This document shows positions 3,198 through 58,535 of a DNA stretch of 64,000 bases, in pieces; position 1 is the first letter of the stretch; every line of letters begins with the position of its first letter. This stretch comes from an uncultured Kiritimatiellota bacterium. GTDB lineage: Bacteria > Verrucomicrobiota > Kiritimatiellia > RFP12 > DVOR01. Position numbers and translations under genes: made by a program. The stretch is taken from contig CALXOF010000005.1 of NCBI GenBank assembly GCA_944389945.1, positions 29,215 to 93,214 on the forward strand, given 5' to 3'. A model generated the notes under the pieces. It saw only the letters and a list, made by a program, of their open reading frames with translations, made no database searches and was not told the DNA's origin.

Positions 3198-4775
3198 ATG
3201 GAACAGAAAATCGCACAAGACATTGCTGACTTCCGCGAACTGCGGGAGAAGGGATTTGTTTATGTGGACAAGACCGAGCCGTTGTACCGCTTGGTCGAGG
3301 GAATTGACATCGGCGGGAAGCTCTTCTTCATCTCCCGGCCGCGACGGTTTGGCAAGTCGCTCATGCTTTCCACCTTGGAGTGTATCTTCCGCGGCGAGCG
3401 TGACCTCTTCAAAGGCCTCGCCATCGACAAGATGGACTACGACTGGACCGACTACCCCGTGTTGCACTTCAACTTCGCCACGATGGATACGGAGACCGTT
3501 GAGGCTTTCCGTGGTGGATTTGTGGCACGTGTCCAAGAAGTGTTCGAAGCAGCCAAGGTCACCTATAATCCCGCGCTCGCCCCGAACGACAACTTCTCTC
3601 GCGCCATCAAGGCCCTTGCCCGAGAGCATGGCAAGCCCGTGGTTATCCTCATCGATGAGTACGACGCGCCGGTCGGCGCTTCGCTGAATGACATCGAGAA
3701 GGCCAAGTCCATTCGCGCCACCCTTTCCGCTTTCTATGGTGAAATCAAGAACAATGCCTCAAACATCCGTTTCATGATGATGACGGGAGTGACGCGGTTC
3801 ACCCAGCTCTCCGTCTTCTCGGCGTTGAACAACCTCAACGACCTAACGATGGATGCGCGCTATGCCACGCTGTTGGGTTACACCGAGGAGGAGTTGGAGA
3901 CCTATTTCAGTCCCTCCCTGCACGCGCACGCCGAGATCATGGGCCTCTCTTATCAGGATTACCGCGGCCAACTTCGCCGGTGGTACAACGGCTATCGCTT
4001 CGCCAAGAGCAGTGCCGTGCGGGTCTACAATCCCGTCTCCATCGCCAAGACCATCGGCCCAAAAGAACCTTTCTTCGCGCCCACCTGGTCCAAGACCGGC
4101 CGCCCCTCCGCACTGATCAACTACCTCACCGAGCGCGAGCTGACGGAGATGGACTACGACAACGTGGAGAACATCTCCGAGGAGATGCTCGATCTCTGTC
4201 GTCTGGAAGCCATCACGCCGGTTTCCATGCTTTACCAAGGCGGCTATCTCACCATCAAGGACTACTCCGAGTGGGGCTTCACCCTCGGCGTCCCCAACGA
4301 GGAGGTCCGTCGCGACCTGGTCTCCCTCTTGGCGCAATACGCCACCAAAGACTTCGCGGTCGATTACCAGAGCGCTCTCTGCGGACTCCTGGCCAAAGGC
4401 GAATTCGCAGCCTTCTTCACCAAACTCAAGGCGCTCTACGCGCACCTGACCTACGGCGCCACCGAAATCCGCGTCCACGAGTCCAGCTACCTGCGCCCGC
4501 TTTACGCCCTGCTCGCCTCGCACCCCGCACTCCGTGTGATTGCCGAGGACACCCAGGCCCATGGCCGCGCCGACCTCGTGGTTGAGAGCCAACGCAACGT
4601 CTACATCTTCGAGCTCAAGGTCGACAAGACCGCCGCCGAGGCCCTCGCGCAAATCAAGGAACGCGGCTACGCCGAACCCTATCGTGCCCTGGGCAAGCCC
4701 ATTCACCTCATCGGCCTCAACTTCGCCTCTGCCACCCACTCCCTCTCCGACACGCTCGTCGAGCCCCTCGCGTAA
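3198..4775 (+). CDS. AAA-ATPase-like protein with C-terminal PD-(D/E)XK nuclease-like domain, paralog P1
   Basis: 525 aa. Degenerate P-loop FISRPRRFGKSLMLSTLE, Walker-B-like VVILIDEYDAP, C-terminal HGRADLVVE..IFELKVD (PD-(D/E)XK). Family architecture corresponds to the Bacteroides-type 'predicted AAA-ATPase' expansion. RBS aaggag. Confidence 0.8.
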   Translation: MEQKIAQDIADFRELREKGFVYVDKTEPLYRLVEGIDIGGKLFFISRPRRFGKSLMLSTLECIFRGERDLFKGLAIDKMDYDWTDYPVLHFNFATMDTETVEAFRGGFVARVQEVFEAAKVTYNPALAPNDNFSRAIKALAREHGKPVVILIDEYDAPVGASLNDIEKAKSIRATLSAFYGEIKNNASNIRFMMMTGVTRFTQLSVFSALNNLNDLTMDARYATLLGYTEEELETYFSPSLHAHAEIMGLSYQDYRGQLRRWYNGYRFAKSSAVRVYNPVSIAKTIGPKEPFFAPTWSKTGRPSALINYLTERELTEMDYDNVENISEEMLDLCRLEAITPVSMLYQGGYLTIKDYSEWGFTLGVPNEEVRRDLVSLLAQYATKDFAVDYQSALCGLLAKGEFAAFFTKLKALYAHLTYGATEIRVHESSYLRPLYALLASHPALRVIAEDTQAHGRADLVVESQRNVYIFELKVDKTAAEALAQIKERGYAEPYRALGKPIHLIGLNFASATHSLSDTLVEPLA

Positions 4776-4904: not shown

Positions 4905-4995
4905 CGCGGACCCTTAAGGGTTTCGGGGTCGACCACTATAGGGTCTCACCTCCGACCACTATAGTGGTTGACCTCGGACCACTATAGGGTCTCAG
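4905..4995 (-). repeat. Family-C triple-palindrome element (GACCCTATAGTGGTC / ACCACTATAGTGGT / GACCCTATAGTGGTC), copy 1
   Basis: Reverse-complement match to the copies at 14379, 21434 and 52238. Flanked by CCCTTAAGGG palindromes. Confidence 0.85.
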
Positions 4996-5868: not shown

Positions 5869-7578
5869 ATGAGCGAAGAAGAGCAAGGTTCGCAACAGCA
5901 GACGAAGATTCAGGCCCGCCGCGTGGCCAAACCTCGCACCACCGGCACCCGCGGCCGCGCCGCGCGGCCCTCCACGGCCAAACCCGCCGTGGCCAAACCT
6001 GCCGTCGAGCCCATGCCCCCGCCTCAGCCCGAAACGCCGCCCATGCCTGTGGCCGAACCTGTTCCTCCGCCGCCCGCGCCGGTGGCTGAGGCCCCCGCGC
6101 CCCAGCCAATCCCGCAGCCCGAGACGCCGCCCATGCCGGAGCCCGCGCCCGCCGCAGACTTCGTGCCCCAGCCTCAGCCTGAGTATGCCCCGCCGACCGA
6201 TGCCACGCCGCAGGAGTCCCGCCGCTGGCAGAACCGCAAGAATAAGTGGGAGCGCCGCAACCAGAACCGTCAGCAGCAGCAACAGCCGCAACCCCCGCCG
6301 CCGGACGCCCTTCCGCCCGACACCCCGCCGCTCTACCTGAAGGACCTCGAGGGCGTGCCCTTCGAGAACCTGGTCGCTCTCCTCCCGCAGGAACAGGCCG
6401 AAGACGCCATCAATATGCGCCGCCACGAGGTCATCATGGCCATCATCCGCAGTTGGCTCCGCCGCCGCGGCACGGTCATCGCCACCGGTTGCCTCGAGGT
6501 GCTGAACGACTGCGGCTTCCTGCGTTCGGCCGCCAACGACTACATGCAGTGCCCCGAGGACGTCTATGTCAGCCAGCAGCAGATTCGCCGCCACGGCCTT
6601 CGCTCCGGCGACCTGGTCGAGGGCCCTCTGCGCGAGCCGCGCGACCGCGACCGCTTCTTCCCGCTGGCCAACGTCACCCTCGTCAACGGCCTCCCCGTGG
6701 AGCAGGCCAAGCGCATCGCCCACTTCGAGTACCTCACGCCCATCTTCCCCGACCGCCGCATCCTGCTGGAGACCACCAAGAACGAGCTCGCCACCCGTGT
6801 GATGGACCTCGTGACGCCCGTGGGCTTCGGCCAGCGCGGCCTCATCGTCGCCCCGCCCCGCACCGGCAAAACGGTCCTCCTCCAGAAGATTGCCAACGCC
6901 ATCAGCACGAACTACCCCGACGTCGAGCTCATGATCCTCCTCATCGATGAGCGCCCCGAGGAAGTCACCGACATGCAGCGCAACACCAAGGCGCAGGTCT
7001 ACTCCTCCACCTTCGACGAAGAGCCCCAGCGCCACTGTGCCGTCTCCGAGATGGTCATCGAGGTCGCCAAGCGCAAGGTCGAGAGCGGCAAGGACGTCGT
7101 TATCCTGCTGGATTCCATCACCCGTCTGGCGCGCGCCTACAACACTGCCGCCCCCCACTCGGGCAAGATCCTTTCCGGCGGCCTCGATGCCAATGCGATG
7201 CACAAGCCCAAACGCTTCTTCGGCGCCGCCCGCAACATCGAGAACGGCGGCTCGCTCACCATTCTGGCCACCGCCCTCATCGAGACCGGCAGCAAGATGG
7301 ACGACGTCATCTTCGAGGAGTTCAAGGGCACCGGCAACATGGAGCTCCGCCTCGACCGCACCCTCTCCGACCGCCGCATCTTCCCGGCCATCAACATCGA
7401 GCAGTCCGGTACCCGCCGCGAGGACCTCCTCTTCCACCCCGACGAGCTCACCCGCGTGTGGGCCCTGCGCAAGGCCCTCACCCCCGTCGGCCCCAGCGAG
7501 GCCATGGACGTCCTCCTCAAGCGGATGCGCCTGACCGGCTCCAACGCCGAGTTCTTGATGTCCATCAAGGAGAACTGA
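5869..7578 (+). CDS. rho: transcription termination factor Rho with a ~190-aa Pro/Gln-rich N-terminal insertion
   Basis: C-terminal RecA-like core GQRGLIVAPPRTGKTVLL...ILLDSITRLARAYN...GSLTILATALIETGSKMDDVIFEEFKGTGNMEL is diagnostic. The N-terminal 190 aa are low-complexity. Confidence 0.92.
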   Translation: MSEEEQGSQQQTKIQARRVAKPRTTGTRGRAARPSTAKPAVAKPAVEPMPPPQPETPPMPVAEPVPPPPAPVAEAPAPQPIPQPETPPMPEPAPAADFVPQPQPEYAPPTDATPQESRRWQNRKNKWERRNQNRQQQQQPQPPPPDALPPDTPPLYLKDLEGVPFENLVALLPQEQAEDAINMRRHEVIMAIIRSWLRRRGTVIATGCLEVLNDCGFLRSAANDYMQCPEDVYVSQQQIRRHGLRSGDLVEGPLREPRDRDRFFPLANVTLVNGLPVEQAKRIAHFEYLTPIFPDRRILLETTKNELATRVMDLVTPVGFGQRGLIVAPPRTGKTVLLQKIANAISTNYPDVELMILLIDERPEEVTDMQRNTKAQVYSSTFDEEPQRHCAVSEMVIEVAKRKVESGKDVVILLDSITRLARAYNTAAPHSGKILSGGLDANAMHKPKRFFGAARNIENGGSLTILATALIETGSKMDDVIFEEFKGTGNMELRLDRTLSDRRIFPAINIEQSGTRREDLLFHPDELTRVWALRKALTPVGPSEAMDVLLKRMRLTGSNAEFLMSIKEN

Positions 7579-8593: not shown

Positions 8594-8771
8594 GCGCCCC
8601 TCCAACTTCCCTCCGGCCCCGTTCCCACGGGGCCATTCTTTTTCTGGTACGGCTCAAGCCGCCCCTTCCTCTTCGCGGAAAGGGAGGCCTGCCGATTTCA
8701 CCAGGCATGCTTGCGGAAAAACTTTCCCTGGGCACTATTGGGAGAGGCGCGGTTTTGCTATGCTATAGGGT

Positions 8772-14378: not shown

Positions 14379-14484
14379 GGGTCCTCCGCGAGACCCTATA
14401 GTGGTCCGAGGTCAACCACTATAAGGGTCGGGGTCGAGACCCTATAGTGGTCCACCCCGAAACCCTTAAGGGTCCGCGAAGGAG
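14379..14484 (+). repeat. Family-C triple-palindrome element, copy 2
   Basis: gagaccctatagtggtccgaggtcaaccactataagggtcggggtcgagaccctatagtggtcc...cccttaagggtccgcg. Confidence 0.85.
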
Positions 14485-14805: not shown

Positions 14806-14866
14806 TTAGGTGCATTGTATTCTCACTTCCAATCGAGTATACTGTCTCTGTCCGTTGGAGGTTAGC

Positions 14867-16015
14867 ATGAAGAGAGTCCGTTTTGTTGCGTTGCTTTTGG
14901 TTTGCCTCTGGGGGGCCGCCTCCGTCGCGGCGCCCGAAGAGGACCTCTCCCCCACCGAGCAGGCCGCACGCTACCGCGAGGCGGCGGAACAGGGAGACGC
15001 CGAGGCGCAGAACAACCTTGGCACCTGTTACGCCACCGGCGAAGGCGTGGCGCAGTCTTACGAAGAGGCGCTGAAGTGGTTCCGCAAATCCGCGGAGCAA
15101 GGGTACGCCGAGGCGCAGTTCAACCTTGGCCTCTCTTATTACAACGGCCGAGGCGTGGAGCGGTCTGACGCAGAGGCCGTCAAGTGGTACCTCAAGGCCG
15201 CGGAGCAAGGCATCGCACAGGCCCAATATGAAGTGGGGGTCTTCTATGCGGATGGGGAGGGCGTGGAACAATCCTATGAGGAGGCCGCGAAGTGGTTCCT
15301 TAAAGCGGCGGAACAGGGAGTCCTGGAAGCGCAATTCAACCTCGCGCTGTATTATCAGAAGGGCCAAGGCGTGAAGCAGTCCTATGAAGAGGCGGCCAAG
15401 TGGTGGCGCAAGGCCGCGGAACAGGGGAATGCCCAGGCGCAGACCAACCTCGCTTTCTATTACGACAAGGGCCAAGGCGTGAAGCAGTCCGATGAAGAGG
15501 CGGCCAAGTGGTATCGCAAGGCGGCGGAGCAGGGGGATGCCCAGGCGCAGACCAACCTCGCACTGTGTTACACCAGTGGCCGCGGCGTGAAACAGTCCAA
15601 CGAGGAGGCCGCAACGTGGTTCCGCAAGGCCGCCGAGCAGGGAAACGCCCAGGCGCAGACCAATCTGGGCTGGCAGTGTTACACCGGCCAAGGCACGGCG
15701 CAGTCGTATGAGGAGGCGGTCAAGTGGTGGCGCAAGGCCGCGGAGCAAGGGGACCTTTTGGCGCAGTGCAACCTCGGCATGTGCTATCTCTATGGAGAAG
15801 GCGTGAGGCGGTCCGACACGGAGGCCGTGAAGTGGCTCCGCAAGGCCGCGGAGCAGGGGAATGCCCAGGCGCAACGGGCCCTTGGCGCGTGCTATGCCTA
15901 TGGCCGGGGCGTGAGGCGTTCGACGGAGCAGGCGAAGGTGTGGTTGCGGAAGGCCATCGAGCAAGGCGACCGGGAGGCGGGAGGCCTCTTGTTGGAGTTG
16001 CAAGCCAACGAGTGA
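14867..16015 (+). CDS. Sel1-repeat (SLR/TPR-like) secreted protein
   Basis: Signal peptide MKRVRFVALLLVCLWGAASVAA followed by ~9 tandem 36-aa Sel1 units (EAxKWyRKAAEQGxAxAQxNLGxCY). RBS ggagg. Confidence 0.85.
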   Translation: MKRVRFVALLLVCLWGAASVAAPEEDLSPTEQAARYREAAEQGDAEAQNNLGTCYATGEGVAQSYEEALKWFRKSAEQGYAEAQFNLGLSYYNGRGVERSDAEAVKWYLKAAEQGIAQAQYEVGVFYADGEGVEQSYEEAAKWFLKAAEQGVLEAQFNLALYYQKGQGVKQSYEEAAKWWRKAAEQGNAQAQTNLAFYYDKGQGVKQSDEEAAKWYRKAAEQGDAQAQTNLALCYTSGRGVKQSNEEAATWFRKAAEQGNAQAQTNLGWQCYTGQGTAQSYEEAVKWWRKAAEQGDLLAQCNLGMCYLYGEGVRRSDTEAVKWLRKAAEQGNAQAQRALGACYAYGRGVRRSTEQAKVWLRKAIEQGDREAGGLLLELQANE

Positions 16016-26922: not shown

Positions 26923-26958
26923 ATCCTCTACCCCGCCGCCGGCCAGAACCTCCTTTGA
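26923..26958 (+). repeat. 36-bp direct repeat, right copy
   Basis: Identical to 26141..26176. Confidence 0.9.
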
Positions 26959-27235
<277 letters not shown>

Positions 27236-28062: not shown

Positions 28063-28083
28063 TTCCTCCTTTGGCACAAACAA

Positions 28084-28106
28084 GGCCGCCCACCCGGGCG
28101 GTTTTT
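28084..28106 (+). terminator. rho-independent terminator (CCGCCCACCCGGGCGG plus TTTTT)
   Basis: 22 nt after the PEP-CTERM stop. Confidence 0.7.
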
Positions 28107-28128
28107 CATTTTCTGATAACACGGTGTT

Positions 28129-28343
28129 CCAAATGACAGGTCTAGACGATGGCATATCGTGCTACGTGTGCAAGCATTGTTATGCTTTTAGGAAATACTA
28201 ATGACAGGTCTTTGGCAAAGGAGCGTGGTGCACTCATGAAGCAACCACGCCTGATCTTTGACAACTGAATGTCTGTGTTTGTATCAAATGATTGACCGCA
28301 GGTAACCGGTCTCATGACGGTCTTATTTATATAAGGTAGTGTT
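28129..28343 (+). promoter_or_regulatory. ~215-bp conserved leader element, copy A (two AATGACAGGTCT motifs, invariant mini-ORF MKQPRLIFDN at 28236..28268, TTATTTATATAAGGT 3' end)
   Basis: ~85% identical to the reverse complement of 44321..44535. Both copies sit 125-145 nt upstream of, and co-oriented with, a gene. Confidence 0.7.
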
Positions 28344-28467
28344 TGACGCCCTACAGATTGACGAGAAAGCGTCCTCGGGCAGTCTTGCACGGCGGGGCAC
28401 ATCAGCGCCCCTGGCGGGGATTTGGTAAAATGGATGGTGGTTTTTCATTTTGAGAGGAGCTTCGGCT

Positions 28468-29952
28468 ATGGGCGGATTTTTTGGCGTAGTGGCGAATGAA
28501 GGGTGCGTCTCGGATGTTTTCTTCGGGACGGACTACCATTCGCATATGGGAACGGTGCGCGGCGGCATCGTGGTTTACGCGGGCAAGGCCTTCCACCGTT
28601 CCATCCACAATCTGCGCAACGCACAGTTCCGGGCACAGTTCGAGCGCGCGGCGACGCGTTTCGCGGGGCTAAACCCGAACTACGCCATCGGCGTCATCAG
28701 CGACCAAGACGACCAGCCGATTCTGGTGCGCTCTCACCTGGGTATGTTCGCGCTGGCCTTCGTGGGCCTGGTGACGAACCTGGACGAGATTGTCGAGGAG
28801 CTGGTGCGTGACCGCACGACGCACTTCTGCGAACTGGGCAAGGACAGCACGATCAACACGCTGGAGGTCCTGGCGATGTTGATCAACACACGCGACACCT
28901 TCGAGGAGGGCCTGGCCTATGCGCAGAGCCGCGTGGAGGGCTCCTGCTCGCTCCTGCTCCTTTCCGAGCGCGGCACGCTCTACGCCGCCCGCGACCGTTT
29001 CGGCCGCACGCCTATCGTGTTGGGCGAGAAGGAGGGCGGCGCGCACGCGGTGACGATGGAGACGGCGGCCTTCCCGAACCTGGGCTACAAGCGCGTCCGT
29101 GACCTGAAGGCCGGCGAAATCGTGGCCATCACCCTGGACGGCGTGGAGACGGTGCGCGAGGGCCGCGAGGAGTCGGCCATCTGTTCCTTCCTCTATGTCT
29201 ATTATGGTTACCCGGCGAGCACCTACGAGGGCGTGGGCGTGGAGCGTACGCGTTATCGTAGCGGCGCCTTCCTCTCGCAGCAGGCCCCGGTGGACGCCGA
29301 CCACGTGGCGGGCATCCCCGATTCCGGCGTGGCGCACGCGTTGGGCTATGCCTTCAAGAGCGGCATCCGCTACGCGCGTCCCTTTGTGAAGTACACGCCC
29401 ACCTGGCCCCGCAGCTTCATGCCGCCGGACCAGAGCCTCCGCCAGAAGATCGCCAACATGAAGCTCCTCCCCGTGCCCGAGCTCATCGAGGGCAAGCGCC
29501 TCATCTTCTGCGACGACTCCATCGTCCGCGGGACGCAGTTGCGCAATCAGGTGGGGCGCCTCTTCGACGCCGGCGCGAAGGAAATCCATGTGCGCATCGC
29601 TTGCCCGCCGCTCCTCTACAAGTGCAAGTTCCTGACCTTCTCGCGTACCGAGAGCGTGATGGACCTCATCACCCGCCGCATCATCCTGGAGCTGGACGGA
29701 CCCGACGCGGACATCCGCAAGTATCGCGACCCCGACGGCGAGCCCTACAAGCGCATGGTCGAGGAAATCCGCCGCCGCCTGGGCATGACTAGCCTGGCCT
29801 TCCAGCGCGTGGCCGACGTGGAGAAGTCCATCGGCATCGGCCCGAAAATCTGCACCTACTGCTGGACCGGCGAAGACATCTCCCTGAGCGGCCACGGCGG
29901 TTGCAAGGGCAACTGCGCCTGCTGCCACGACAAGTGCGCGATGGAGAAGTAA
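28468..29952 (+). CDS. amidophosphoribosyltransferase-family protein (PurF-like; GATase-II-like N-domain lacking Cys1, PRTase domain, Cys-rich C-terminus)
   Basis: MGGFFGVV N-terminus with Gly replacing the catalytic Cys. PRTase motif LIFCDDSIVRGTQ. C-terminal CTYCW...CKGNCACCHDKC. Extended -10 TGGTAAAAT at 28423 and RBS gagaggag. Confidence 0.65.
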   Translation: MGGFFGVVANEGCVSDVFFGTDYHSHMGTVRGGIVVYAGKAFHRSIHNLRNAQFRAQFERAATRFAGLNPNYAIGVISDQDDQPILVRSHLGMFALAFVGLVTNLDEIVEELVRDRTTHFCELGKDSTINTLEVLAMLINTRDTFEEGLAYAQSRVEGSCSLLLLSERGTLYAARDRFGRTPIVLGEKEGGAHAVTMETAAFPNLGYKRVRDLKAGEIVAITLDGVETVREGREESAICSFLYVYYGYPASTYEGVGVERTRYRSGAFLSQQAPVDADHVAGIPDSGVAHALGYAFKSGIRYARPFVKYTPTWPRSFMPPDQSLRQKIANMKLLPVPELIEGKRLIFCDDSIVRGTQLRNQVGRLFDAGAKEIHVRIACPPLLYKCKFLTFSRTESVMDLITRRIILELDGPDADIRKYRDPDGEPYKRMVEEIRRRLGMTSLAFQRVADVEKSIGIGPKICTYCWTGEDISLSGHGGCKGNCACCHDKCAMEK

Positions 29953-29955
29953 CCC

Positions 29956-31155
29956 GTGGCGCGCAACCGGGTGAGGCTCATCGAGCGCCTGGAAAGCTTC
30001 GTCATCCCGCTCATCCAGCAGGAAGGCGCGGACAAGAAGGTGCGTGGCTTCTGGCCTAAATTCCTCTTGGCCGTCCTCAAGGGCATCTCGAAGATCTACG
30101 GCGCCATCGTCCGCCTGCGGATGTGGTTTTTCCGCATCGGCGTGTTGCGCCGTTGGCCCCTCGGGTGCCAGGTGATCAGCGTGGGCAACGTCACCGCCGG
30201 CGGCACCGGCAAGACCCCCGTGGTGGAAATCTTCGCCCGTGAGCTCACCCGCCAGGGCCGCAAGGTCGCCATCCTCTCGCGCGGTTACCGCCGCAAGGAG
30301 AAGCCTTTCCTCCAGCGCCTCTTCAGCGACACCATCGACCCCCCGCTCGTGGTGAGCGATGGCCGCCGCGTCCTCCTCGATTCCGAGACCGGCGGCGACG
30401 AGCCCTACATGCTCGCTTCCAACCTCCCCGGCGTCGTCGTCCTGGTCGACCGCAACCGCGTCAAGTCTGGCCGCTACGCCATCAAGAAGTTCAAGTGCGA
30501 CACCCTCGTCCTCGACGATGGCTTCCAGTACCAGCGCCTCAAGCACTCCCGCGACATCGTGCTGGTGGACAAGACCAACCCCTTCGGCAACGGCAACCTC
30601 CTCCCCCGCGGCGTCCTCCGCGAAGGCATCCAAAACCTCCGCCGCGCAGACTTCATCTTCATCACCAAGAGCGACGGCAACTCCGACGCCCTCCGCGCCA
30701 AGATTCGTAAGCTCAATCACCACGCCGAAATCATCGAGTGCCGTCACGCCCCCAAGCGCCTCAAGAATGTCTACGGCAAGACCAATCGCGACCTCTCTTG
30801 GCTCGCCGGCAAAAAGGTTCTCGCCCTCTCCGGCATCGCCGTCCCCCAGAGCTTTGAAGGCTTCCTCCGCGGCTACGGCGCCGAGCTCCTCGAATGCGTC
30901 CGCTACGCCGACCACCACCGCTACGCCACCCAGGAAATCATCAACGTCATCAACCGTGCCGCCGACCTCGGCTGCGATGCCGTCGTCACCACCGAGAAGG
31001 ACGCCGTCCGCTTCCCTCGCCTCACCAACGTCGCCGTCCCGGTCTACTACCTCCGCATCGAGATCGAGATTCTCAAAGGCGCCGAGAACTTCCACGACGC
31101 CGTCTCCCACATCTGCTTCAAGCCCTTCGAGAGGCACCCCGATGCCGACTTGTAA
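29956..31155 (+). CDS. lpxK: tetraacyldisaccharide 4'-kinase
   Basis: VISVGNVTAGGTGKTP P-loop and typical LpxK length; GTG start. Confidence 0.85.
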   Translation: MARNRVRLIERLESFVIPLIQQEGADKKVRGFWPKFLLAVLKGISKIYGAIVRLRMWFFRIGVLRRWPLGCQVISVGNVTAGGTGKTPVVEIFARELTRQGRKVAILSRGYRRKEKPFLQRLFSDTIDPPLVVSDGRRVLLDSETGGDEPYMLASNLPGVVVLVDRNRVKSGRYAIKKFKCDTLVLDDGFQYQRLKHSRDIVLVDKTNPFGNGNLLPRGVLREGIQNLRRADFIFITKSDGNSDALRAKIRKLNHHAEIIECRHAPKRLKNVYGKTNRDLSWLAGKKVLALSGIAVPQSFEGFLRGYGAELLECVRYADHHRYATQEIINVINRAADLGCDAVVTTEKDAVRFPRLTNVAVPVYYLRIEIEILKGAENFHDAVSHICFKPFERHPDADL

Positions 31156-31156
31156 A

Positions 31157-31655
31157 GGGGCGCTGACGCGCCCCGGAGAACGGAGAACGGAAAACGGAGA
31201 ACAGACCGCCCCTGCGGGGCGACGGGCCATCTGAGACCTCCACTGACAACCATGCACGCACAGGAGATACAGGAGATTCAGGAGATGCAGGAGCGCGCGA
31301 CAAGCGCGCGACCGACGACGCTTTTGTCCAATCAATCGGCGTGCGCCAGCACGCCCCAAATCTGCACAAATCTGCGGAATCTGCGTTTCCCATCCTGGCA
31401 GTCAGCCGGCGGTAGCCGGCCCCTAATCGACTTCAATCGGCGTAATCGGCGGTTCCCCCATCCTGGCAGTCTTCGTGAACCTTCGTGGTCCTTCGTGGTT
31501 CTTCGTGTCAGCCCCGCAGGGCAAACCCTCCACACTCTCCCATCGCTCTGCCCGTCGCGCGCTTGTCGCGCGCTCCGTAGCCGTGGAAGGTTTGGCGCTT
31601 CGCGCCTGCACGCTCCGTTTTCCGTTTTCCGTTCTCCGGAGCGCACCTCACGGAG
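31157..31655. repeat. intergenic mosaic (Family-A, CAGGAGATACAGGAGATTCAGGAG array, two tandem CCGGCGGTAGCCGGCCCCTAATCG modules, CTTCGTGG array, GCCGTGGAAGGTTTGGC module, CCGTTTTCCGTT array)
   Basis: Recurring modules. Confidence 0.85.
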
Positions 31656-31664
31656 GTGCGCTCC

Positions 31665-33218
31665 ATGAGCATCCTCCGCAAAGTGGGTGTCGTCAGCGCG
31701 ATGACTGCCGTCAGCCGCGTCTTCGGACTGGTGCGCGAGATTGTCATGGCGCACTTCTTTGGCACCTCCGCCATCCAGAGCGCCTTCGTCATCGCCTTCC
31801 GCATCCCCAACCTCTTCCGCCGCCTCTTTGGCGAGGGCGCGCTCGGTGCCGCCTTCATTCCCGTCTTCGCCGAGATTGAGCGTACCGAGGGCCCCGAACG
31901 CGCCCAGCTCTTCCTCTCCCGTATTCTCGGCATCCTGGTCTGCGTGTTGGCCCTCCTCGTGGGCCTCGGCATCGCCGCCACCTATGCCGTACAATTCGCC
32001 GCCGAGCCCGGTGGCCGATGGGACGTTGCCATGCCGCTCACGCGCATCATGCTCCCTTACGCGCTCTTCATCTGCGTGGCCGCCATCGTCTCCGCCGTGC
32101 TCAACGTCCGCGACCGCTTCGCTGTCCCCTCCCTCACCCCCGTCATCCTCAACCTCTGCTGGATTGGCGCCCTCGTCGGCGTCTGCCCCTTCCTCGACAG
32201 CGCCGCCGCCCAGATCAACGTCGTCTGCTGGGGCATCCTCTTCGCCGGCCTCGCCCAAATCTGCTTCCAGCTCCCCGCCCTCCGAGCCGTGGGCTACCGC
32301 CTCCGCTTCACCTTCACCGGCTGGCGCACCTCGCCCTACGTCCGCCAAGTCCTCCTCCAGATGGGCCCGGCCTCACTCGGCATCGCCCTCGCCCAAATCA
32401 ACATCTGCATCGATGGCTGGCTCGCCTACTACGGCGCTCCCTGGGCCCCCTCCGCCCTCGAATACGCCGACCGCATCATCTACCTCCCCCTCGGCCTCTT
32501 CGGCACCGCCTTCGCCACCGTGCTCCTCCCCACCTTCTCCAAGCAGGCCGCCGCCGCCGACCGTGCCGCCCTCCTCGCCACCCTCGAGCGCTCCATGCGG
32601 AACCTCTTGGTCCTCATGGCCCCCATGGCCCTCGGCCTCATCGCCCTCGCCGCACCCATCGTCGCCCTCCTCTATCAGCGCGGTGCCTTCGACGCCCAAT
32701 CCACCCTCTGGACCGCCCGCGCCGTCACCGCCTACGCGCTCGGCCTCATCGCCTTCTCCTCCGCCAAGACCGTCATCCCCGTCTTCTACGCCCATAAAGA
32801 CCTCAAGACCCCCGTCAAGGTCGCCGCCTGGTGCATCCTCGGGAACTTTCTCCTCAACCTCGCCTCGGTCCTCTTCCTCCCCGAAGGCTGGCGCCACGTC
32901 GGCATCGCGCTCAGCACCGTCCTCAACTCCTTCGCCAACACCGGAATCCTCCTCGCCATTCTCTGGCGCCGCGGCCTCCGTCCCAACCTCGTCGCCCTCG
33001 CCTGGTCCGCCATCCGCGCCTTCCTCGCCGCCACCCTCATGGGTCTCGCCGTCTGGGCGGCCCACACTTGGCTCGCGACCCGCGGGTTCTCGCTCTTCCT
33101 CACTGTTCCTTGTGCCATCGCCCTTGGAGGCGTCCTCTATCTGCTCCTCGCCCGCCTCCTCGTCCCCGCCGAACTCCGCGAACTCCTCGCCGACCTCCCT
33201 CTCCGCCGCCGTCGATAA
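31665..33218 (+). CDS. murJ: lipid II flippase MurJ
   Basis: MSILRKVGVVSAMTAVSRVFGLVREIVMAHFFG is the canonical MurJ N-terminus; 14 TM helices; RBS ggagg. Confidence 0.9.
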   Translation: MSILRKVGVVSAMTAVSRVFGLVREIVMAHFFGTSAIQSAFVIAFRIPNLFRRLFGEGALGAAFIPVFAEIERTEGPERAQLFLSRILGILVCVLALLVGLGIAATYAVQFAAEPGGRWDVAMPLTRIMLPYALFICVAAIVSAVLNVRDRFAVPSLTPVILNLCWIGALVGVCPFLDSAAAQINVVCWGILFAGLAQICFQLPALRAVGYRLRFTFTGWRTSPYVRQVLLQMGPASLGIALAQINICIDGWLAYYGAPWAPSALEYADRIIYLPLGLFGTAFATVLLPTFSKQAAAADRAALLATLERSMRNLLVLMAPMALGLIALAAPIVALLYQRGAFDAQSTLWTARAVTAYALGLIAFSSAKTVIPVFYAHKDLKTPVKVAAWCILGNFLLNLASVLFLPEGWRHVGIALSTVLNSFANTGILLAILWRRGLRPNLVALAWSAIRAFLAATLMGLAVWAAHTWLATRGFSLFLTVPCAIALGGVLYLLLARLLVPAELRELLADLPLRRRR

Positions 33219-33331
33219 AGGCGGAATCCGTCTCCACAAAGACACTAAAGGAATGCAAGAGTCTGGGCACTTCTCACGCCCTTGACTATCTCTTGCGTTT
33301 GCGTGCTAGCGCCCCTCTGGCAGTCAGACAA

Positions 33332-34992: not shown

Positions 34993-35071
34993 CTTTGCGG
35001 AAAAACTTTCCCCGGACAGTATTGCTGGAGTCTTTTGAGAATCCGCGCGGGGAGAGGGATTTTGGTAAAAT
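34993..35071 (+). promoter_or_regulatory. HIT-gene upstream region: CTTTGCGGAAAAACTTTCCCCGGAC motif (34993..35017) plus extended -10 TGGTAAAAT (35063..35071)
   Basis: The same motif is found upstream of the 8772 and 45051 genes. RBS aaggagg before the ATG at 35093. Confidence 0.5.
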
Positions 35072-44176: not shown

Positions 44177-44320
44177 GGTGCGTTCCTCGTTGGGGGGTTG
44201 TCCATTACTTCTTTATTGTACCCCTATTCGCCCTTCCCGCGCAAGTGGGGGGTGAAGCGGTACAGTCCGGAGAAAGTTTTCCGCGAAGGTGTTTGTCCTC
44301 GTCGACCTTGCAGGGCCTCA

Positions 44321-44535
44321 AACTACACCTTATATAAATAAGGCTGTCGTGAGACCGGTTCCCAACGGTCAATCATTTGATACAAACACATACATTCAGT
44401 TGTCAAAGATCAGGCGTGGTTGCTTCATGACTGCTCCACGTACCTTTGCCAAAGACCTGTCATTTGCCTCCTCTAAATCAACATCAACCACACGCCCTAT
44501 AGCAAGATATGTCATTTTCAAGACCTGTCATTTGG
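44321..44535 (-). promoter_or_regulatory. ~215-bp conserved leader element, copy B (co-oriented with nanA; mini-ORF at 44396..44428)
   Basis: The reverse complement aligns with 28129..28343 (~85% identity). The 33-nt mini-ORF is 100% identical. Confidence 0.7.
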
Positions 44536-44900
44536 TAGAAGGTTGGAAGTTTAGAGGCTTGGAGGCTTGGCCTTTGCGGCTGTCGCCGCTTTGCACAACG
44601 GCTTCGCCTGTCGCCCGCAGGGGCGTTCCGTTCTCCGTGGCCGTGGGAGGTTTGTCCCTTCGGGCCTGCACGCTCTGTTCCCCGTTCTCTGGGGCGCGCC
44701 AGCGCCCCCATTTCCCCAAAGCGTGGCGTGCGAAGCCCGCCATGCTCCTACAGGCCCCCGGGCCGGACGTGCGCCTTGCGCGCACGCACGGCCCGCCCCC
44801 TGCGCCGCCTTCTTTGTGTCTCTTTGTGGTTCTTCGTGTTCTTTGTGAGTGCCGCGCAGCGTGAGGCCTGTCCAAACTTCCAAGCCTCCAAGCTTCCATT
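44536..44900. repeat. intergenic mosaic (Family-B, GCCGTGGGAGGTTTGTCCCTTCGGGCCTGCACG module, Family-A, CTTTGTG array, Family-B)
   Basis: Recurring modules. Confidence 0.8.
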
Positions 44901-44984: not shown

Positions 44985-45041
44985 CTTTGCGGAAAAACTT
45001 CCCCGGACGAGGTGCACGCGGAGGTAAGATTTTGGTATGAT
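44985..45041 (+). promoter_or_regulatory. tolB upstream region: CTTTGCGGAAAAACTTCCCCGGAC motif (44985..45008) plus extended -10 TGGTATGAT (45033..45041) immediately before ATTATAGGGATATG
   Basis: Same two-part architecture as at 8710..8772 and 34993..35093. Confidence 0.5.
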
Positions 45042-49562: not shown

Positions 49563-51137
49563 ATGGAACCGAGAATCGCACAAGATACCGCTGACTTCCG
49601 AGAATTACGGGAGAAGCAATGCATTTACGTGGACAAGACCGCGCAATTGCACGCGTTGGCCTGTGACCCCACACGTAAACTTTACTTCATCTCGCGGCCC
49701 CGACGCTTCGGCAAGTCGCTCATGCTCTCTACGCTGGAGTGTCTCTTCCGCGGTAAGCGCGAGCTCTTCAAGGGCCTCGCCATCGACAAGTTGGATTACG
49801 ACTGGGCTGAGTATCCCATCCTGTGTTTCTCCTTTGCCGGCGTCAAGGCCAAAACGTTGGAGGCCTTCGAGGCGGACTTCTGTTTCCGTGTCAAAAAGGT
49901 GTTGACAGAGGCTCGATGCACCTGGAATGATGCGCTCTCTCCCGGAGCGAACTTCAACCAAGCCATCACTGACCTTGCCAAACAGGCAGGCAAACCCGTG
50001 GTCATCCTTATCGATGAGTATGACGCGCCGGTGAGCCACGCACTGGCCGACATCAAGCTTGCCACGGACATCCGCAGCGAGCTCTCGGATTTCTATATTC
50101 AAATCAAAGAGTGCGCCGCGGACATTCGCTTTATGATGATGACGGGTGTGACGAAGTTTACGCAACTCTCCGTCTTCTCGGCGTTGAACAATCTCAACAA
50201 CCTAACGCTGGACGACCGCTACGCCACCTTGTTGGGCTATACCGATGACGAGATGACCACCTACTTCGAGCCGACGATGCGCCGCCATGCCGAGATCATG
50301 GGCCTCTCCTACGAAGATTACCGCGAGAAACTTCGCTGGTGGTACAACGGTTATCGTTTCGCCCGCTGGAACACGACCAAGGTCTACAACCCCTGCGCCA
50401 TCGGCAAGACGCTCGGTGCGTGCACCCCCGAGTTCATCGGCACGTGGACTTCCACCGGGTTGACTTCTGCGGTCTTCCATTACTTTGCGAACAACCAACT
50501 CGCCGATCAAGATTACGAGAACATCGAAGGCGTCTTTGAGGAAGATTTGGACGTCTGTGAGTTGGAGAATATCCTGCCCACTGCTATGCTTTATCAGGGC
50601 GGGTATCTTACCATCAAAGACTACCGAAATGGCACCTTCACGCTTGGTATCCCCGACGAAGAGGTCCGCCGTGCCTTCAATGCACAGCTCGTCCAGAAGT
50701 TTACCGGGCAGAGCGACAACCGTTATCTCAGCATTGTCAGTCGGGCCCTGATGGGAGCCGACTTCGCCACCTTCTTCGGCAAACTCTCCGACCTCTACGC
50801 CCACCTCGCCTACGGTCCCAAAGAAGACAACGTCCAGGAATTCTCCTTCCAGCGTATCCTCTATGTCCTGCTGACCTCTAGCGGCTTCTTCCGCGTCACC
50901 GCCGAAGACCGGCAGTCCCATGGCCGCGCCGATTTGGTCGCCGAGACCCCCGAACGTGTCTTTATCTTTGAGTTGAAAGTCGACGGCACGCCCCAAGAGG
51001 CCCTCGCCCAAATCAAGGAAAAGGGTTACGCCGAGCCCTACCGACACAGCGGCAAGGAAGTCCACCTTATCGGACTCTCCTTCGATGGCAAGACCCGCCG
51101 CCTCACCGGCACTGTCGCAGATCGGCTGATTAGCTGA
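49563..51137 (+). CDS. AAA-ATPase-like plus PD-(D/E)XK protein, paralog P2
   Basis: 524 aa with the same architecture as P1. RBS gaggag. Confidence 0.8.
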   Translation: MEPRIAQDTADFRELREKQCIYVDKTAQLHALACDPTRKLYFISRPRRFGKSLMLSTLECLFRGKRELFKGLAIDKLDYDWAEYPILCFSFAGVKAKTLEAFEADFCFRVKKVLTEARCTWNDALSPGANFNQAITDLAKQAGKPVVILIDEYDAPVSHALADIKLATDIRSELSDFYIQIKECAADIRFMMMTGVTKFTQLSVFSALNNLNNLTLDDRYATLLGYTDDEMTTYFEPTMRRHAEIMGLSYEDYREKLRWWYNGYRFARWNTTKVYNPCAIGKTLGACTPEFIGTWTSTGLTSAVFHYFANNQLADQDYENIEGVFEEDLDVCELENILPTAMLYQGGYLTIKDYRNGTFTLGIPDEEVRRAFNAQLVQKFTGQSDNRYLSIVSRALMGADFATFFGKLSDLYAHLAYGPKEDNVQEFSFQRILYVLLTSSGFFRVTAEDRQSHGRADLVAETPERVFIFELKVDGTPQEALAQIKEKGYAEPYRHSGKEVHLIGLSFDGKTRRLTGTVADRLIS

Positions 51138-51139
51138 TT

Positions 51140-51600
51140 GGAGGGGCGCTAATGCGCCCCAGAGAACGGACGTGCAGGCACAAAGCGCCAAGCCTTCCAC
51201 GGCCACGGAACGCGCGACAAGCGCGCGACAAATAGGTCGCCGTTCTCCGGCGGCGAAGCCGCCCATCCTAGTCGTCCTATAGGTCCTATACGTCCTACCG
51301 CAACGTCCTGCCGGCGGTAGGCGGCCCCTAATCGGCTCCAATCGGCGAAATACCGCAAGGTCTTCCTAGCGAAGCGACGGAACATCGGCGGTTCCCAACA
51401 CGTGCGATTCTTCGAGGGAACGATGGAAACGCAAGGGATGGGCACGGTAGTGAGCCCCGAAGGGGCGAACGGTGAAGTGCCCAGGCCCTTGCGTTCCTTC
51501 GTGTCTTCGTGGAAATCCACACTAGCCGTCCTGCCGGCGGTAGCCGGCCCCTAATCGGCTCCAATCGGCGTAATCGGCGGTTCCCCTCTGACAGTCAAAC
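51140..51600. repeat. intergenic mosaic (GCTGATTGG heptamers, Family-A, GTGCAGGC..CTTCCACGG module, CCTATAGGTCCTATACGTCCTACC module, CCGGCGGTAGGCGGCCCCTAATCGG x2, GAAACGCAAGGGATGGGCACGGTAGTGAGC module, CTTCGTG array)
   Basis: Recurring modules. Confidence 0.85.
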
Positions 51601-51924: not shown

Positions 51925-52890
51925 GGGTGGGTCGAAACCGCCTCACTGAAAGCCCATACGATACCATATCCCTCTCCCATAGTCAAGTGGGGGAATTTGG
52001 CACTTTGGCGTTTGAAGGCTTGGAGGCTTAGAAACGTGGTCCCACATCGCAAAGAAAACCGCCGATTTCGCCGATTGGAGCCGATTAGGGGCCGGCTACC
52101 GCCGGCTGACTGCCAGTGTGGGAAACGCAGATCCCGCAGATTGTGCAGATTTTGGGCGTGCTCGCGTACGCAAAATTGATTGTTGGGTCGCGGCTTGCGC
52201 ATTCCTGCACCTCCTGTTAGGAGGCCTCTCCTGCGGGGTCCTTTAAGGGGCCTTTCTGAGACCCTATAGTGGTCCGAGGTCAACCACTATAGTGGTCGGG
52301 GTCGAGACCCTATAGTGGTCCGACCCGAAACCCTTAAGGGTCCAGAGAGGGCCCTTTTAGGGGGCCCACACAAGCGCAGGATGAAACCGCCGATTTCGCC
52401 GATTGGAGCCGATTAGGGGCGTGCTACCGCACGCGGGACGCACAATGGAAGTTTAGAAGTTTGGAGGCTTGGAAGTTTGGAAACGGCCACGTTCGTCGTG
52501 CGCTTGCCGCGCGTTCCGTTCTCCGTGGCCGTGGAAGGTTTGTCCCTTCGGGCCTGCACGCTCCGTTTTCCGTTCTCCGGGGGCGGCGCAAGCCGCTCCT
52601 TGTCCTATATGTCCTACCGCGTCATCTAAAATGACGGAAACGCAAGGGATGGGGATAGGGAGAGAGGCCCGAAGGGCCGAACGGTGAAGTGCCAAGTGGA
52701 AGTTTAGAAGCTTGGAGGCTTGGAAGTTTGGTGACACTGTATCCATCATCCCGCAGAGGCGCGCGAAAACGCGCGATGGCGACGCTTTGCCCAATCCTTT
52801 TTCCAATCTCATCGCCGCCAAGGGCGGCGGCTCGGGCTCCAACCTCCGGTGCTCCTCCAAGCATCCAAGCCTCCAAACCTCTAAACCTCT
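51925..52890. repeat. ~1-kb intergenic mosaic (Family-B x5, CCGATTTCGCCGATTGGAGCCGATTAGGGGC x2, GCAGAT array, CGCGCATTCCTGCACCTCCTGTTAGGAGG, Family-C copy 4 at 52238..52349, GCCGTGGAAGGTTTGTCCCTTCGGGCCTGCACG, Family-A, GTCCTATATGTCCTACC, GAAACGCAAGGGATGGGGATAGGG)
   Basis: No ORF longer than 90 aa with a plausible product. Entirely composed of modules that recur elsewhere. Confidence 0.85.
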
Positions 52891-56960: not shown

Positions 56961-58535
56961 TTAGGTCAGCGGTTCAGTGGCGGTACCGGTGAGGTGGCGG
57001 CTCTTGCCGTCGAAGGAGAGGCCGATGAGGTGGACTTCCTTGCCGGAGTGGCGGTAGGGCTCGGCGTAACCCTTTTCCTTGATTTGTTCGATGGCCTCTT
57101 GGGGCGTACCGTCAACCTTCAGCTCGAAGACAAAGACGCGTTCAGGCGTCTCGGCAACGAGGTCAGCGCGACCGTGAGACTGGCGGTCCTCGGCGGTGAC
57201 GCGGAAGGAGCCGTCGGAGGTCAGCAGGACGTAGAGGATGCGCTGATAGGAGAATTCGTGGATGCTATTCTCTTGAGGGCCATAGGCGAGGTGGGCATAG
57301 AGGTCGGAGAGGCGTCCAAGGAAGGTCGCGACATCGCCCTTCATCAGCGCCAAGCAGGTGAGGTTCCGGTAGTCGTTGTCTTTCTTCCCGGCAAACTTTT
57401 GAACGAGCTGGGTGTTGAAAGCGCGACGGACCTCTTCGTCCGGGAAGCCGAGGGTGAAGTAAGGGGTGCGGTAATCCTTGATAGTGAGATACCCGCTCTG
57501 ATAAAGCATGGCAACGGGACGAATATTCTCCAATCCGCAGACATCCAAATCTTCCTCGGTAACACCCTCAACGTTCTCGTAGTCCCTCTCAGCGAGTTGG
57601 TTGTTTGTGAAGTAGTTGATGACGGCGGAGGTCTGACCAGTGGCAATCCATGTACCGATGAACTCGGGTTCGCAGGCTCCAAGGGTTTGGCCAATGGCGA
57701 AGGGGTTGTAGACCTTGGCCGTGTTCCAACGGGCGAAACGGTAACCGTTGTACCACCAGCGGAGCTTCTCGCGATAGTCCTCGTAGGAGAGGCCCATGAC
57801 CGCGGCGTGGCGGTGCAACGTCTTGCTGAAGTTGGCCTCCAGCTCCTCGTCGGTGTAACCGAGGAGCGTGGCATAGCGACTATCCATCGTCAGGTCGGTG
57901 AGGTTATTCAGCGCCGAGAAGACGGAGAGCTGGGTGAAACGCGTCACGCCGGTCATCATCATGAAACGGATGTTACCGACGTTGTTCTTAATCTCACCGT
58001 AAAAGGCGGAGAGTTTGGCGCGGATGGCCTCGGCCTTCTCGATGTCGTTTAGGGCGGCTCCGACGGGCGCGTCGTACTCATCAATAAGGATGACCACGGG
58101 TTTGCCGCGGTCCTGGGCGAGGGAACGGATGGCATTGGCGAAGTTGTCCCCCGGGGCAAACGCAGGGTCATAGGTGACCTTGGCTTCCTTGAAGGCCTGC
58201 ATGACACGCGCCACAAAAGTAGAGTAGAAGCTGTCGAACGTCGTCACGTCCATCGTGCCGAAGTTGAAATGCAGGACGGGATACTCTGCCCAGTCGTAGT
58301 CCATCCGATCGATGGCGAGGCCCTTGAAGAGATCACGGCGGCCTTGGAAGAGATACTCCAACGTGGAGAGCATGAGCGACTTACCGAAGCGCCGCGGGCG
58401 CGAGATGAAAAAGAAGGCATCCCGCCCACGCGTGATGAGCGGATAGAGCAACGCGGTCTTATCCACATAACGAAAGCCATCCTCCCGCATAATGCGGAAG
58501 TCATAGGTTCCCTGCGCGATCTTCTCTTCTTCCAT
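56961..58535 (-). CDS. AAA-ATPase-like plus PD-(D/E)XK protein, paralog P3 (P1-like N-terminal half, P2-like C-terminal half)
   Basis: 524 aa. Residues ~150-245 are near-identical to P1; residues ~250-520 are near-identical to P2 (GLSYEDYREKLRWWYNGYRFARWNT, SHGRADLVAETPERVF, QIKEKGYAEPYRHSGKEVHLIGLSFDGK). Confidence 0.8.
   Translation of the reverse strand: MEEEKIAQGTYDFRIMREDGFRYVDKTALLYPLITRGRDAFFFISRPRRFGKSLMLSTLEYLFQGRRDLFKGLAIDRMDYDWAEYPVLHFNFGTMDVTTFDSFYSTFVARVMQAFKEAKVTYDPAFAPGDNFANAIRSLAQDRGKPVVILIDEYDAPVGAALNDIEKAEAIRAKLSAFYGEIKNNVGNIRFMMMTGVTRFTQLSVFSALNNLTDLTMDSRYATLLGYTDEELEANFSKTLHRHAAVMGLSYEDYREKLRWWYNGYRFARWNTAKVYNPFAIGQTLGACEPEFIGTWIATGQTSAVINYFTNNQLAERDYENVEGVTEEDLDVCGLENIRPVAMLYQSGYLTIKDYRTPYFTLGFPDEEVRRAFNTQLVQKFAGKKDNDYRNLTCLALMKGDVATFLGRLSDLYAHLAYGPQENSIHEFSYQRILYVLLTSDGSFRVTAEDRQSHGRADLVAETPERVFVFELKVDGTPQEAIEQIKEKGYAEPYRHSGKEVHLIGLSFDGKSRHLTGTATEPLT

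Follow-up and report, generated by a model that had tools for sequence, protein, structure and literature searches.

Antitermination by boxA and Nus factors was long held to be specific to rRNA operons and lambdoid phages, and boxA was later found at suhB, at a few other genes and at CRISPR arrays, mainly in Proteobacteria. As described, boxA is the binding site of NusB/NusE in the ribosomal antitermination complex, with the consensus GYTCTTTAANA and known cases in 5' untranslated regions such as that of suhB (Baniulyte et al. 2017, PMC5725501). It also occurs upstream of CRISPR arrays (Stringer et al. 2020, PMC7665894), its consensus drifts between phyla (PMC5725501, PMC7665894), and the boxC of E. 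coli reads UCUGUGUGGG (PMC10250234). Here, we analysed a stretch of 64,000 nucleotides from an uncultured Kiritimatiellota bacterium (contig CALXOF010000005.1, positions 29,215 to 93,214; hereafter the window, to which ENA contig BRZ_KK_NODE_69 is identical) that carries two copies of an AT-rich element of ~235 bp, termed the cassette, each placed before an operon. From 5' to 3', the cassette consists of a candidate promoter of the sigma70 type (ATGACA-N16-TATCKT), a repeat of the -35 box, a small hairpin, a probable boxA, a GT-rich boxC-like block and a hairpin of ~43 nt. Our preferred reading, held tentatively, is that the cassette is a lineage-specific, duplicated promoter and antitermination module resembling the leader of an rRNA (rrn) operon.

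The two copies were compared by MAFFT alignment, a repeat search of the window, BLAST and an nhmmer profile. Further loci, labelled L001-L037, were retrieved from conspecific contigs, a sister lineage, relatives and unrelated metagenomic contigs; among them, L013 is a related metagenome-assembled genome, found by scanning a one-genome-per-species collection with the second box (box 2), that holds a diverged copy of the cassette at 3375-3594 with one AATGACAGGTCT box. The features of the cassette, in window coordinates, are as follows.

28129..28365, + strand: cassette copy A, the whole stretch homologous to copy B (nhmmer extent 28121-28379)
44309..44535, - strand: cassette copy B, before the operon of nanA, N-acylglucosamine 2-epimerase (AGE) and GtrA genes
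28133..28160, + strand: putative sigma70-type promoter P1 of copy A, ATGACA-N16-TATCGT, from a consensus scan, with the first AATGACAGGTCT box as its -35 element
44504..44531, - strand: putative promoter P1 of copy B, ATGACA-N16-TATCTT, from a consensus scan
28200..28221, + strand: box 2, AATGACAGGTCTTTGGCAAAGG, the second box copy fused to the palindrome CTTTG-G-CAAAG; 22/22 identical in copies A and B and in L013
28223..28250, + strand: small hairpin GCGTGGT-N14-ACCACGC, directly 5' of boxA in the position of a boxB and part of the minimum free energy fold
28236..28268, + strand, and 44428-44396, - strand: open reading frame (ORF) of 10 codons, MKQPRLIFDN, ATGAAGCAACCACGCCTGATCTTTGACAACTGA, hereafter the mini-ORF; 33 nt, identical in both copies
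28252..28271, + strand: putative boxA block TGATCTTTGACAACTGAATG, with the core GATCTTTGACAA at 28253-28264
44400..44411, - strand: putative boxA core of copy B, from a relaxed-pattern search
28272..28281, + strand: boxC-like GT-rich block TCTGTGTTTG, read from the sequence, 8/10 identical to E. coli boxC
28308..28350, + strand: three-stem hairpin of ~43 nt, imperfect, around the palindrome CTTATTTATATAAG; in copy B at 44356-44314 (-) and in L013 at 3527-3566

The invariant block at 28252-28271 is most likely a boxA, i.e. a NusB/NusE antitermination site, by its likeness to the rRNA-spacer boxA of other bacteria, and the native boxA of the host may differ from it. A relaxed boxA pattern (KNTCTTTRAMAA) had two matches in the window, both in the cassette, where 0.05 were expected, and its sole intergenic match in 282 kb of relatives was the L013 copy. 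The string GATCTTTGACA fits the gamma-proteobacterial consensus GYTCTTTAANA, from which other phyla are known to drift, at 9 of 11 positions; it has A in place of Y at position 2 and G in place of A at position 8. When the 20-mer TGATCTTTGACAACTGAATG was scanned against JGI metagenomes, exact matches were obtained in nine contigs of unrelated organisms with GC contents of 37-58%. In L014 and L018 it lies in a 16S-tRNA-tRNA-23S spacer, ~110 nt before the 23S 5' end as placed by Rfam; in L016 and L022 it follows two ORFs and directly precedes a CRISPR-like array of GAATGACCTGTTTTAAGGGATTGCAAC repeats; and in L021 it stands 50 nt before a protein-coding operon. Thus, the 20-mer recurs in an rRNA spacer, before a CRISPR-like array and before an operon, which are the three published contexts of boxA, and we read the block accordingly. 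In published papers, the boxA string was matched only by lists of coronavirus primers. The stretch at 2563-2800 of L016, with its counterpart in L022 (GC ~0.39), looks in its own right like a clear CRISPR-leader boxA of a low-GC bacterium. For comparison with rRNA leaders and spacers, the putative boxA string of the cassette is GATCTTTGACAACTG. The window also encodes rho (5869-7578; Pfam Rho_RNA_bind and ATP-synt_ab), and NusG is encoded in the relative L009.

Conservation within the cassette was uneven. The L013 copy shares with A and B the blocks AATGACAGGTCTTTGGCAAAGG (22/22), CTGATCTTTGACAACTGAATG (21/21), GTTTGTAT, TATATAAGG and GGCCCTG, while conservation among the three copies is ~50% elsewhere, a block-wise pattern that suggests selection on the blocks, at least in the past. 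The boxA block, at 21/21 in A, B and L013, is the best-conserved part, which supports the antitermination reading, as does the orientation of both window copies into operons. The hexamers and spacing of P1 are kept between A and B; in the MAFFT alignment the copies are conserved from -35 to about +5 and then fall to only ~40% identity over the next ~35 nt, which is the pattern that a promoter would show. Its -10 hexamer in copy A is also that of the promoter of the tRNA operon of the window (TTGACT-N17-TATCGT, 51986-51958, - strand), making P1 a credible promoter for this host.

The hairpins differed in how well they were kept. The small one has 7 bp in A and 5 bp in B and is not conserved in L013. 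The three-stem hairpin, which can also be described as centred on CCTTATTTATATAAGG, has the same architecture in B, L013 and, with one mismatch, A. Two of its pairs are fully compensatory between B and L013, and at four others a change on one side preserves pairing (G-C/G.U or A-U/G.U). In further support, two population variants keep pairing by wobble: C28245T in strains L033 and L036 turns a G-C pair of the small hairpin into G.U, and a change in strain L005 turns a U-A pair of the large hairpin into U.G. Whole-leader folds were no stabler than those of shuffled sequences (z of +0.4, +0.4 and +1.4), and neither an intrinsic terminator nor a terminator/antiterminator pair was found in or after either copy. 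Between the boxC-like block and the large hairpin, TATCAAATGATTG (28282-28294, + strand; 44382-44370, - strand) fits the E. coli IHF consensus, WATCAANNNNTTR; this site overlaps a TCAA-N4-TTGA palindrome, is struck by the polymorphism A28286G and is not conserved in L013.

Several descriptive claims of the first-pass annotation, which had been made from the letters of the window alone, were borne out. It had described two copies ~85% identical, and we found 83-89% identity: MAFFT paired 28129-28365 (+) with the reverse complement of 44309-44535, the repeat search returned 28187-28355 and 44309-44477 as an inverted pair (169 nt, 87%), and the BLAST identities were 89% across 168 nt (E 1e-54) and 83% across ~240 nt. 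The two boxes that it had placed ~70 bp apart are the two copies of AATGACAGGTCT, 68 nt apart in each cassette; ATGACAGGTCT has five matches in the window, where 0.47 were expected. Each copy is followed, as it had noted, by a gene in the same orientation, at 125 nt for copy A and 145 nt for copy B, and the genes are those it had described. The operon after copy A encodes a 494-amino-acid (aa) PurF-like protein with a GATase_7 domain only, then LpxK and MurJ, and that after copy B encodes a DHDPS-family NanA, AGE and a GtrA-family protein.

We then compared the loci across strains and species. Six conspecific metagenome contigs (L001-L006) carry copy B, and four cassette-bearing strains, termed W-type (L030, L033, L035 and L036), carry copy A, L006 and L033 being one contig of strain BRZ_SI. 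The cassette-free sister lineage, termed S-type (L031, L032, L034 and L037), is 93-96% identical in DNA and has an identical PurF-like protein, yet it carries neither copy; its nanA (-) and PurF-like (+) genes lie side by side in divergent orientation, the intergenic space between them holds other, GC-rich repeat modules, and homology to the window extends only to 28418 and 44251, a short way before the core promoters of the two operons. Orthologous loci were compared in ten related genomes, for the PurF-like gene in L007-L011 and L023 and for nanA in L023-L029. The cassette was absent from the PurF-like-LpxK-MurJ loci (72-85% aa identity in L007-L011; also L023) and from the nanA-AGE loci (85-94% aa identity), so that an ancestral leader of either operon was rejected. 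The relevant features outside the two copies are as follows.

28422..28431, + strand: putative core promoter of the PurF-like operon, extended -10 TGG-TAAAAT, downstream of the cassette and not part of it; related sequences in L007, L009 and S-type strains
44215..44244, - strand: putative nanA core promoter, TTGCGC-N18-TACAAT, downstream of the cassette and not part of it; conserved in the cassette-free L023, L024 and L027
14671..14701, - strand: isolated box-2 fragment ACAAATGACAGGTCTTTGGTAAAGGTGCATATGG, 30 nt, flanked by the 3' end of a MatE-like gene and by a Sel1-repeat gene in divergent orientation

Across species the nanA core promoter reads TTGCGn-N17/18-(T/C)A(C/T)AAT. Since the cassette lies upstream of core promoters that are shared across species and is absent in relatives, it appears to be a recent, lineage-specific addition. 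This overturns the earlier view of the element as a conserved leader of these genes, as it sits upstream of their conserved core promoters and is missing from the sister lineage and the orthologous loci.

The cassette has a discrete 5' edge and a ragged 3' end. The edge C(C)AAATGACAGGTCT is common to copy A, copy B, copy B in L006, the L013 copy and the box-2 fragment at 14.7 kb. Strain BRZ_SI has the segment 34831-44537 in the opposite orientation to the window, with one breakpoint exactly at the 5' edge of copy B (44535), so that this edge coincides with a strain-specific rearrangement. Gene order near these operons differs in almost every strain or species, the BRZ_SI inversion spanning 9.7 kb, and in L023 the order is PurF-like-LpxK-MurJ-nanA-AGE-GtrA on one strand. 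No target duplication was identifiable around the copies, for which there was no alignable pair of empty and filled sites. Further copies were sought in the 9 kb past the left edge of the window, which together with the window gives 73 kb, and in a viral scan, and none was found in either; the box-2 scan of the genome collection returned only L013 and a chance match in Paenibacillus.

It had previously been proposed that the mini-ORF is an invariant leader peptide acting by attenuation or as a ribosome-stalling sensor, its translation controlling the downstream operons. The 33-nt segment is indeed identical in both window copies, its frame is open (39/41 codons) in both, and copy B has a GGAG 5 nt before the ATG. 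However, the near-identical tract (TCATGAAG...AATGT[C/A]TGTGTTTGTATCAAATGATTGACCG) reaches outside the ORF, covering 65 nt with a single mismatch and extending 30 nt beyond the stop, and the N-terminal extensions of the frame are unrelated between copies. Nor is the ORF invariant beyond the window: in L033 and L036, C28245T changes CCA to TCA (Pro to Ser), and the L013 copy has no ATG, GTG or TTG start codon and has an in-frame TAG upstream. The codons are unrelated to the downstream pathways, and no terminator or alternative hairpins were found. The composition of the mini-ORF accounts for its sequence, as the ATG (28236) falls in the loop of the small hairpin, CAACCACGC is the 3' arm of that hairpin, and the last six codons, including the stop, are boxA with its 3' flank (CTGATCTTTGACAACTGA); the peptide would thus be a by-product of these elements being read as codons, and we judge the mini-ORF to be non-coding. 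The first-pass annotation had itself held that copies with no link to a downstream gene and no preserved mini-ORF would speak against its proposal, and the L013 copy, which has lost the ORF and is aimed at the 3' end of a convergent gene, is of this kind and by that argument refutes the leader-peptide idea, which we regard as very improbable. Of the broader proposal of a cis-acting element, what survives is the idea that a long leader contains an element acting through its RNA, as boxA does in nascent transcripts, and the peptide and riboswitch versions do not. An antisense protein was also considered and rejected: a search of 5.8 billion proteins returned no relative of the 86-aa ORF at 28142-28402 (-), which both copies leave open, and most differences between A and B are non-synonymous in this ORF.

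Under the antitermination reading, we infer the following course from the sequence. P1 would start a transcript near 28167 in copy A or 44497 in copy B, and boxA, ~85 nt downstream of the start (~95 nt from the promoter), would be carried in this transcript. There it would load NusB/NusE (S10), together with the remaining Nus factors, onto RNA polymerase, which would thereby resist Rho while it crosses an untranslated leader of ~200-300 nt into the PurF-like-LpxK-MurJ or the nanA-AGE-GtrA operon. The input from the cassette would add to that of the older core promoter of each operon. A bolder version, which we consider unlikely as a whole, is that the cassette is a portable mimic of an rRNA leader that has been copied between intergenic regions of gut Kiritimatiellia, that ribosomal antitermination thereby gives Rho-resistant, growth-rate-coupled expression of envelope and sialic-acid operons in some strains, and that the AATGACAGGTCT edge serves as a site of recombination or mobilisation.

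Several observations weigh against a promoter and antitermination module, and several of them also speak for a neutral repeat module, perhaps derived from an rRNA operon or a CRISPR leader, that was pasted in by recombination, has copies that are similar through recency or gene conversion and leaves the operons unaffected. Translated operons normally need no Nus antitermination. P1 is a match to a consensus, and shuffled regions contain 0.3-0.6 such matches each; the 7 nt between boxA and the boxC-like block compare with 18-19 nt in E. coli; strain L006 has three disruptive mismatches in the large hairpin; and the window and the retrieved Kiritimatiellia loci contained no rRNA operon to supply the boxA of the host. 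The sister strains and all relatives keep the operons and their core promoters without the cassette, which is thus dispensable, and this absence with unchanged core promoters favours a neutral module. So does a genome full of dispersed intergenic modules, with S-type strains holding others at the same place. Strains diverge no less within the cassette (3 per 300 nt) than in the adjoining sequence; as local divergence is low everywhere, purifying selection was not detectable from polymorphism. The L013 copy has no P1 part and faces the 3' end of a methyltransferase gene that converges on it, the 14.7-kb fragment likewise has no same-strand gene downstream, and the 5' edge occurs in five different contexts, one of them at an inversion breakpoint. 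Against neutrality stand the block-wise conservation among A, B and L013 (box 2 at 22/22, the boxA block at 21/21, and TATATAAGG), a hairpin architecture kept by compensatory changes, and the aiming of both full copies into operons at similar distances. Overall, we consider a neutral module, the main rival, somewhat unlikely.

Other explanations were also considered. The boxes of the cassette (AATGAC(A)GGTCT and CAAATGA) and palindromes (CTTTGGCAAAG, CCTTATTTATATAAGG) could form an array of operators through which one regulator of amino-sugar/sialic-acid and envelope operons acts on the core promoters. There are four GGTCT-type boxes per copy, with a 12-mer repeated exactly, in a position upstream of core promoters as for activator sites; box 2 and TATATAAGG are kept in L013, and the Sel1-repeat gene has the isolated box-2 fragment 110 nt before it, on the opposite strand. 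We nevertheless consider this improbable: neither copy has a linked regulator gene, conservation of the distal boxes does not extend to B or L013, the sites lie 100-330 nt away from the core promoters, and the 65-nt near-identical tract and the verbatim boxA are left unexplained. A stand-alone small RNA gene, or the riboswitch-like structured RNA that the earlier annotation had offered, with the conserved ~100 nt as its core, would fit the putative promoter upstream, the compensatory changes in the three-stem hairpin and the absence of a downstream gene in L013, as expected of an independent RNA gene. However, no Rfam family matched at gathering scores or at E<=10, the folds are no stabler than shuffles, and no intrinsic terminator follows the element, so that the riboswitch proposal does not hold and RNA genes of either kind seem a shade less probable still; the copies are too few and their distribution too narrow for covariation statistics. 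The sole Leu_leader match in Rfam scored 21 bits, below the gathering score of 50, and corresponds to the terminator of the upstream gene (28078-28167, - strand).

Four further identities were tried and rejected. A truncated rRNA operon had been suggested by eye (AGnGTTTGA...CAGATTGA), and local alignment to 16S 5' sequences was no better than for shuffles (p ~0.4). An orphan CRISPR leader was discarded, as the window holds no array and the sequence after the cassette is not repeated elsewhere. An invertible promoter or a miniature inverted-repeat transposable element was discarded since the copies have no flanking or terminal inverted repeats, and inverted repeats of at least 9 nt were found in neither copy. 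A sigma54 promoter at TGGCAAAGG has the wrong GG/GC spacing, as judged by eye.

The genome around the cassette has features of its own. Nearly all intergenic regions are mosaics of dispersed GC-rich modules (26958-27081, 31156-31646, 44560-44700, 51142-51590, 52057-52600, 61790-62050 and others; also 3190-3950 of L031), each a short GC hairpin (e.g. GGGGCG-loop-CGCCCC) beside tandem repeats of 6-9 nt such as GAGAACG, AATCGGC, CCAAGCYTCCAA, ATAGGAC and CAATCAGC; they vary between strains at one locus and are located at rearrangement breakpoints. A ~114-nt repeat family with 2.8 tandem copies of a 23-nt unit (CGAGACCCTATAGTGGTCCGAGGT) occurs on both strands at 4930-4994, 14389-14453, 21435-21501 and 52258-52323, and the Sel1-repeat gene (14810-16015, + strand) contains about eight tandem DNA repeats of 108 nt. 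Three paralogues of ~525 aa (3198-4775, + strand; 49563-51137, + strand; 56961-58535, - strand) are 73-83% identical in DNA; AAA-ATPase_like and PDDEXK_9 domains were assigned by Pfam to the first and to its strain homologues and by DNA similarity to the other two, and homologues stand beside MurJ at variable positions in L031 and L037.

The motif GGAAAA(C)TTTC(C/T)CCGGAC(A/T)GTA had four matches in the window, where 0.56 were expected. Its sites are 35001-35017 (+), 44281-44265 (-), 44992-45008 (+), 34860-34836 (-) and 8717-8733 (+), with a degenerate one at 28371-28390 (+), and it lies 60-90 nt before the start codons, and ~41-48 nt before the -10 elements, of the unrelated HIT, nanA, TolB-like and Ser/Thr kinase genes. 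It may be an upstream promoter element or the site of a common regulator, and it is absent upstream of nanA in S-type strains. As for the PurF-like protein (operon 28468-33285), only its glutamine amidotransferase domain and no phosphoribosyltransferase domain was detected. Its gene is always followed by those of LpxK and MurJ across Kiritimatiellia (L007-L011, L023), and a separate GATase_6/GATase_7 protein is encoded in a glutamine-synthetase/carA/pyrG/carB cluster (L007), which together suggest an envelope-related amidotransferase and not PurF.

Among known systems, the cassette is closest to the leader and spacer regions of rRNA operons that are served by the NusB/NusE/NusA/NusG/SuhB antitermination complex (rrnTAC), with the same order of putative promoter, hairpin, putative boxA and GT-rich boxC-like block. 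Its putative boxA core is GATCTTTGACAA, compared with GCTCTTTAACAA in E. coli, its 20-mer is present verbatim in rRNA spacers of other bacteria, and the duplication of its -35 box 68 nt away recalls the tandem P1/P2 promoters of rRNA operons. Unlike these, the cassette is followed by no rRNA gene and does not resemble a 16S 5' end, the operons after it are protein-coding and have promoters of their own, and it is confined to one lineage; its boxA and boxC-like blocks are 7 nt apart, compared with 18-19 nt in Enterobacteriaceae, and there is no trailer for boxC pairing.

With the leader-peptide attenuators of trp, his and leu operons the cassette has in common a short ORF in a long upstream region, but this ORF is not conserved and lacks regulatory codons, and terminator/antiterminator hairpins are missing. 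The case is a warning that a perfectly conserved short leader ORF can be a protein-binding RNA motif read as codons. Correia elements of Neisseria are promoter-bearing dispersed intergenic repeats, and the cassette resembles them in being a short AT-rich repeat with a discrete edge, strain-variable upstream of genes, with promoter-like hexamers and an IHF-like site. It differs in that no terminal inverted repeats were found and only two full copies occur in 73 kb. Were the cassette inert, it would simply add another family to the intergenic repeats in which this genome is unusually rich.

Cases of boxA outside rRNA operons, at suhB of E. coli and Salmonella, at other genes and at CRISPR arrays, also rank among the closest systems and are alike in that the site lies in sense orientation upstream of the unit (PMC5725501, PMC7665894). 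At suhB, boxA is at most 50 nt from the start codon and represses, whereas that proposed for the cassette is ~200 nt upstream and behind a second, core promoter. The targets also differ, being translation and Nus genes there and envelope and sialic-acid genes here. If our preferred reading is true, the boxA mechanism would extend to an uncultured gut bacterium of the PVC group (Planctomycetes-Verrucomicrobia-Chlamydiae) and to ordinary protein-coding operons, with genes for lipid A, the peptidoglycan flippase and sialic acid as targets. Moreover, the known cases evolved in place, whereas the candidate boxA described here lies inside a duplicated, strain-variable unit of 235 bp in a PVC-group host, which would mean that antitermination signals can spread as ready-made modules.

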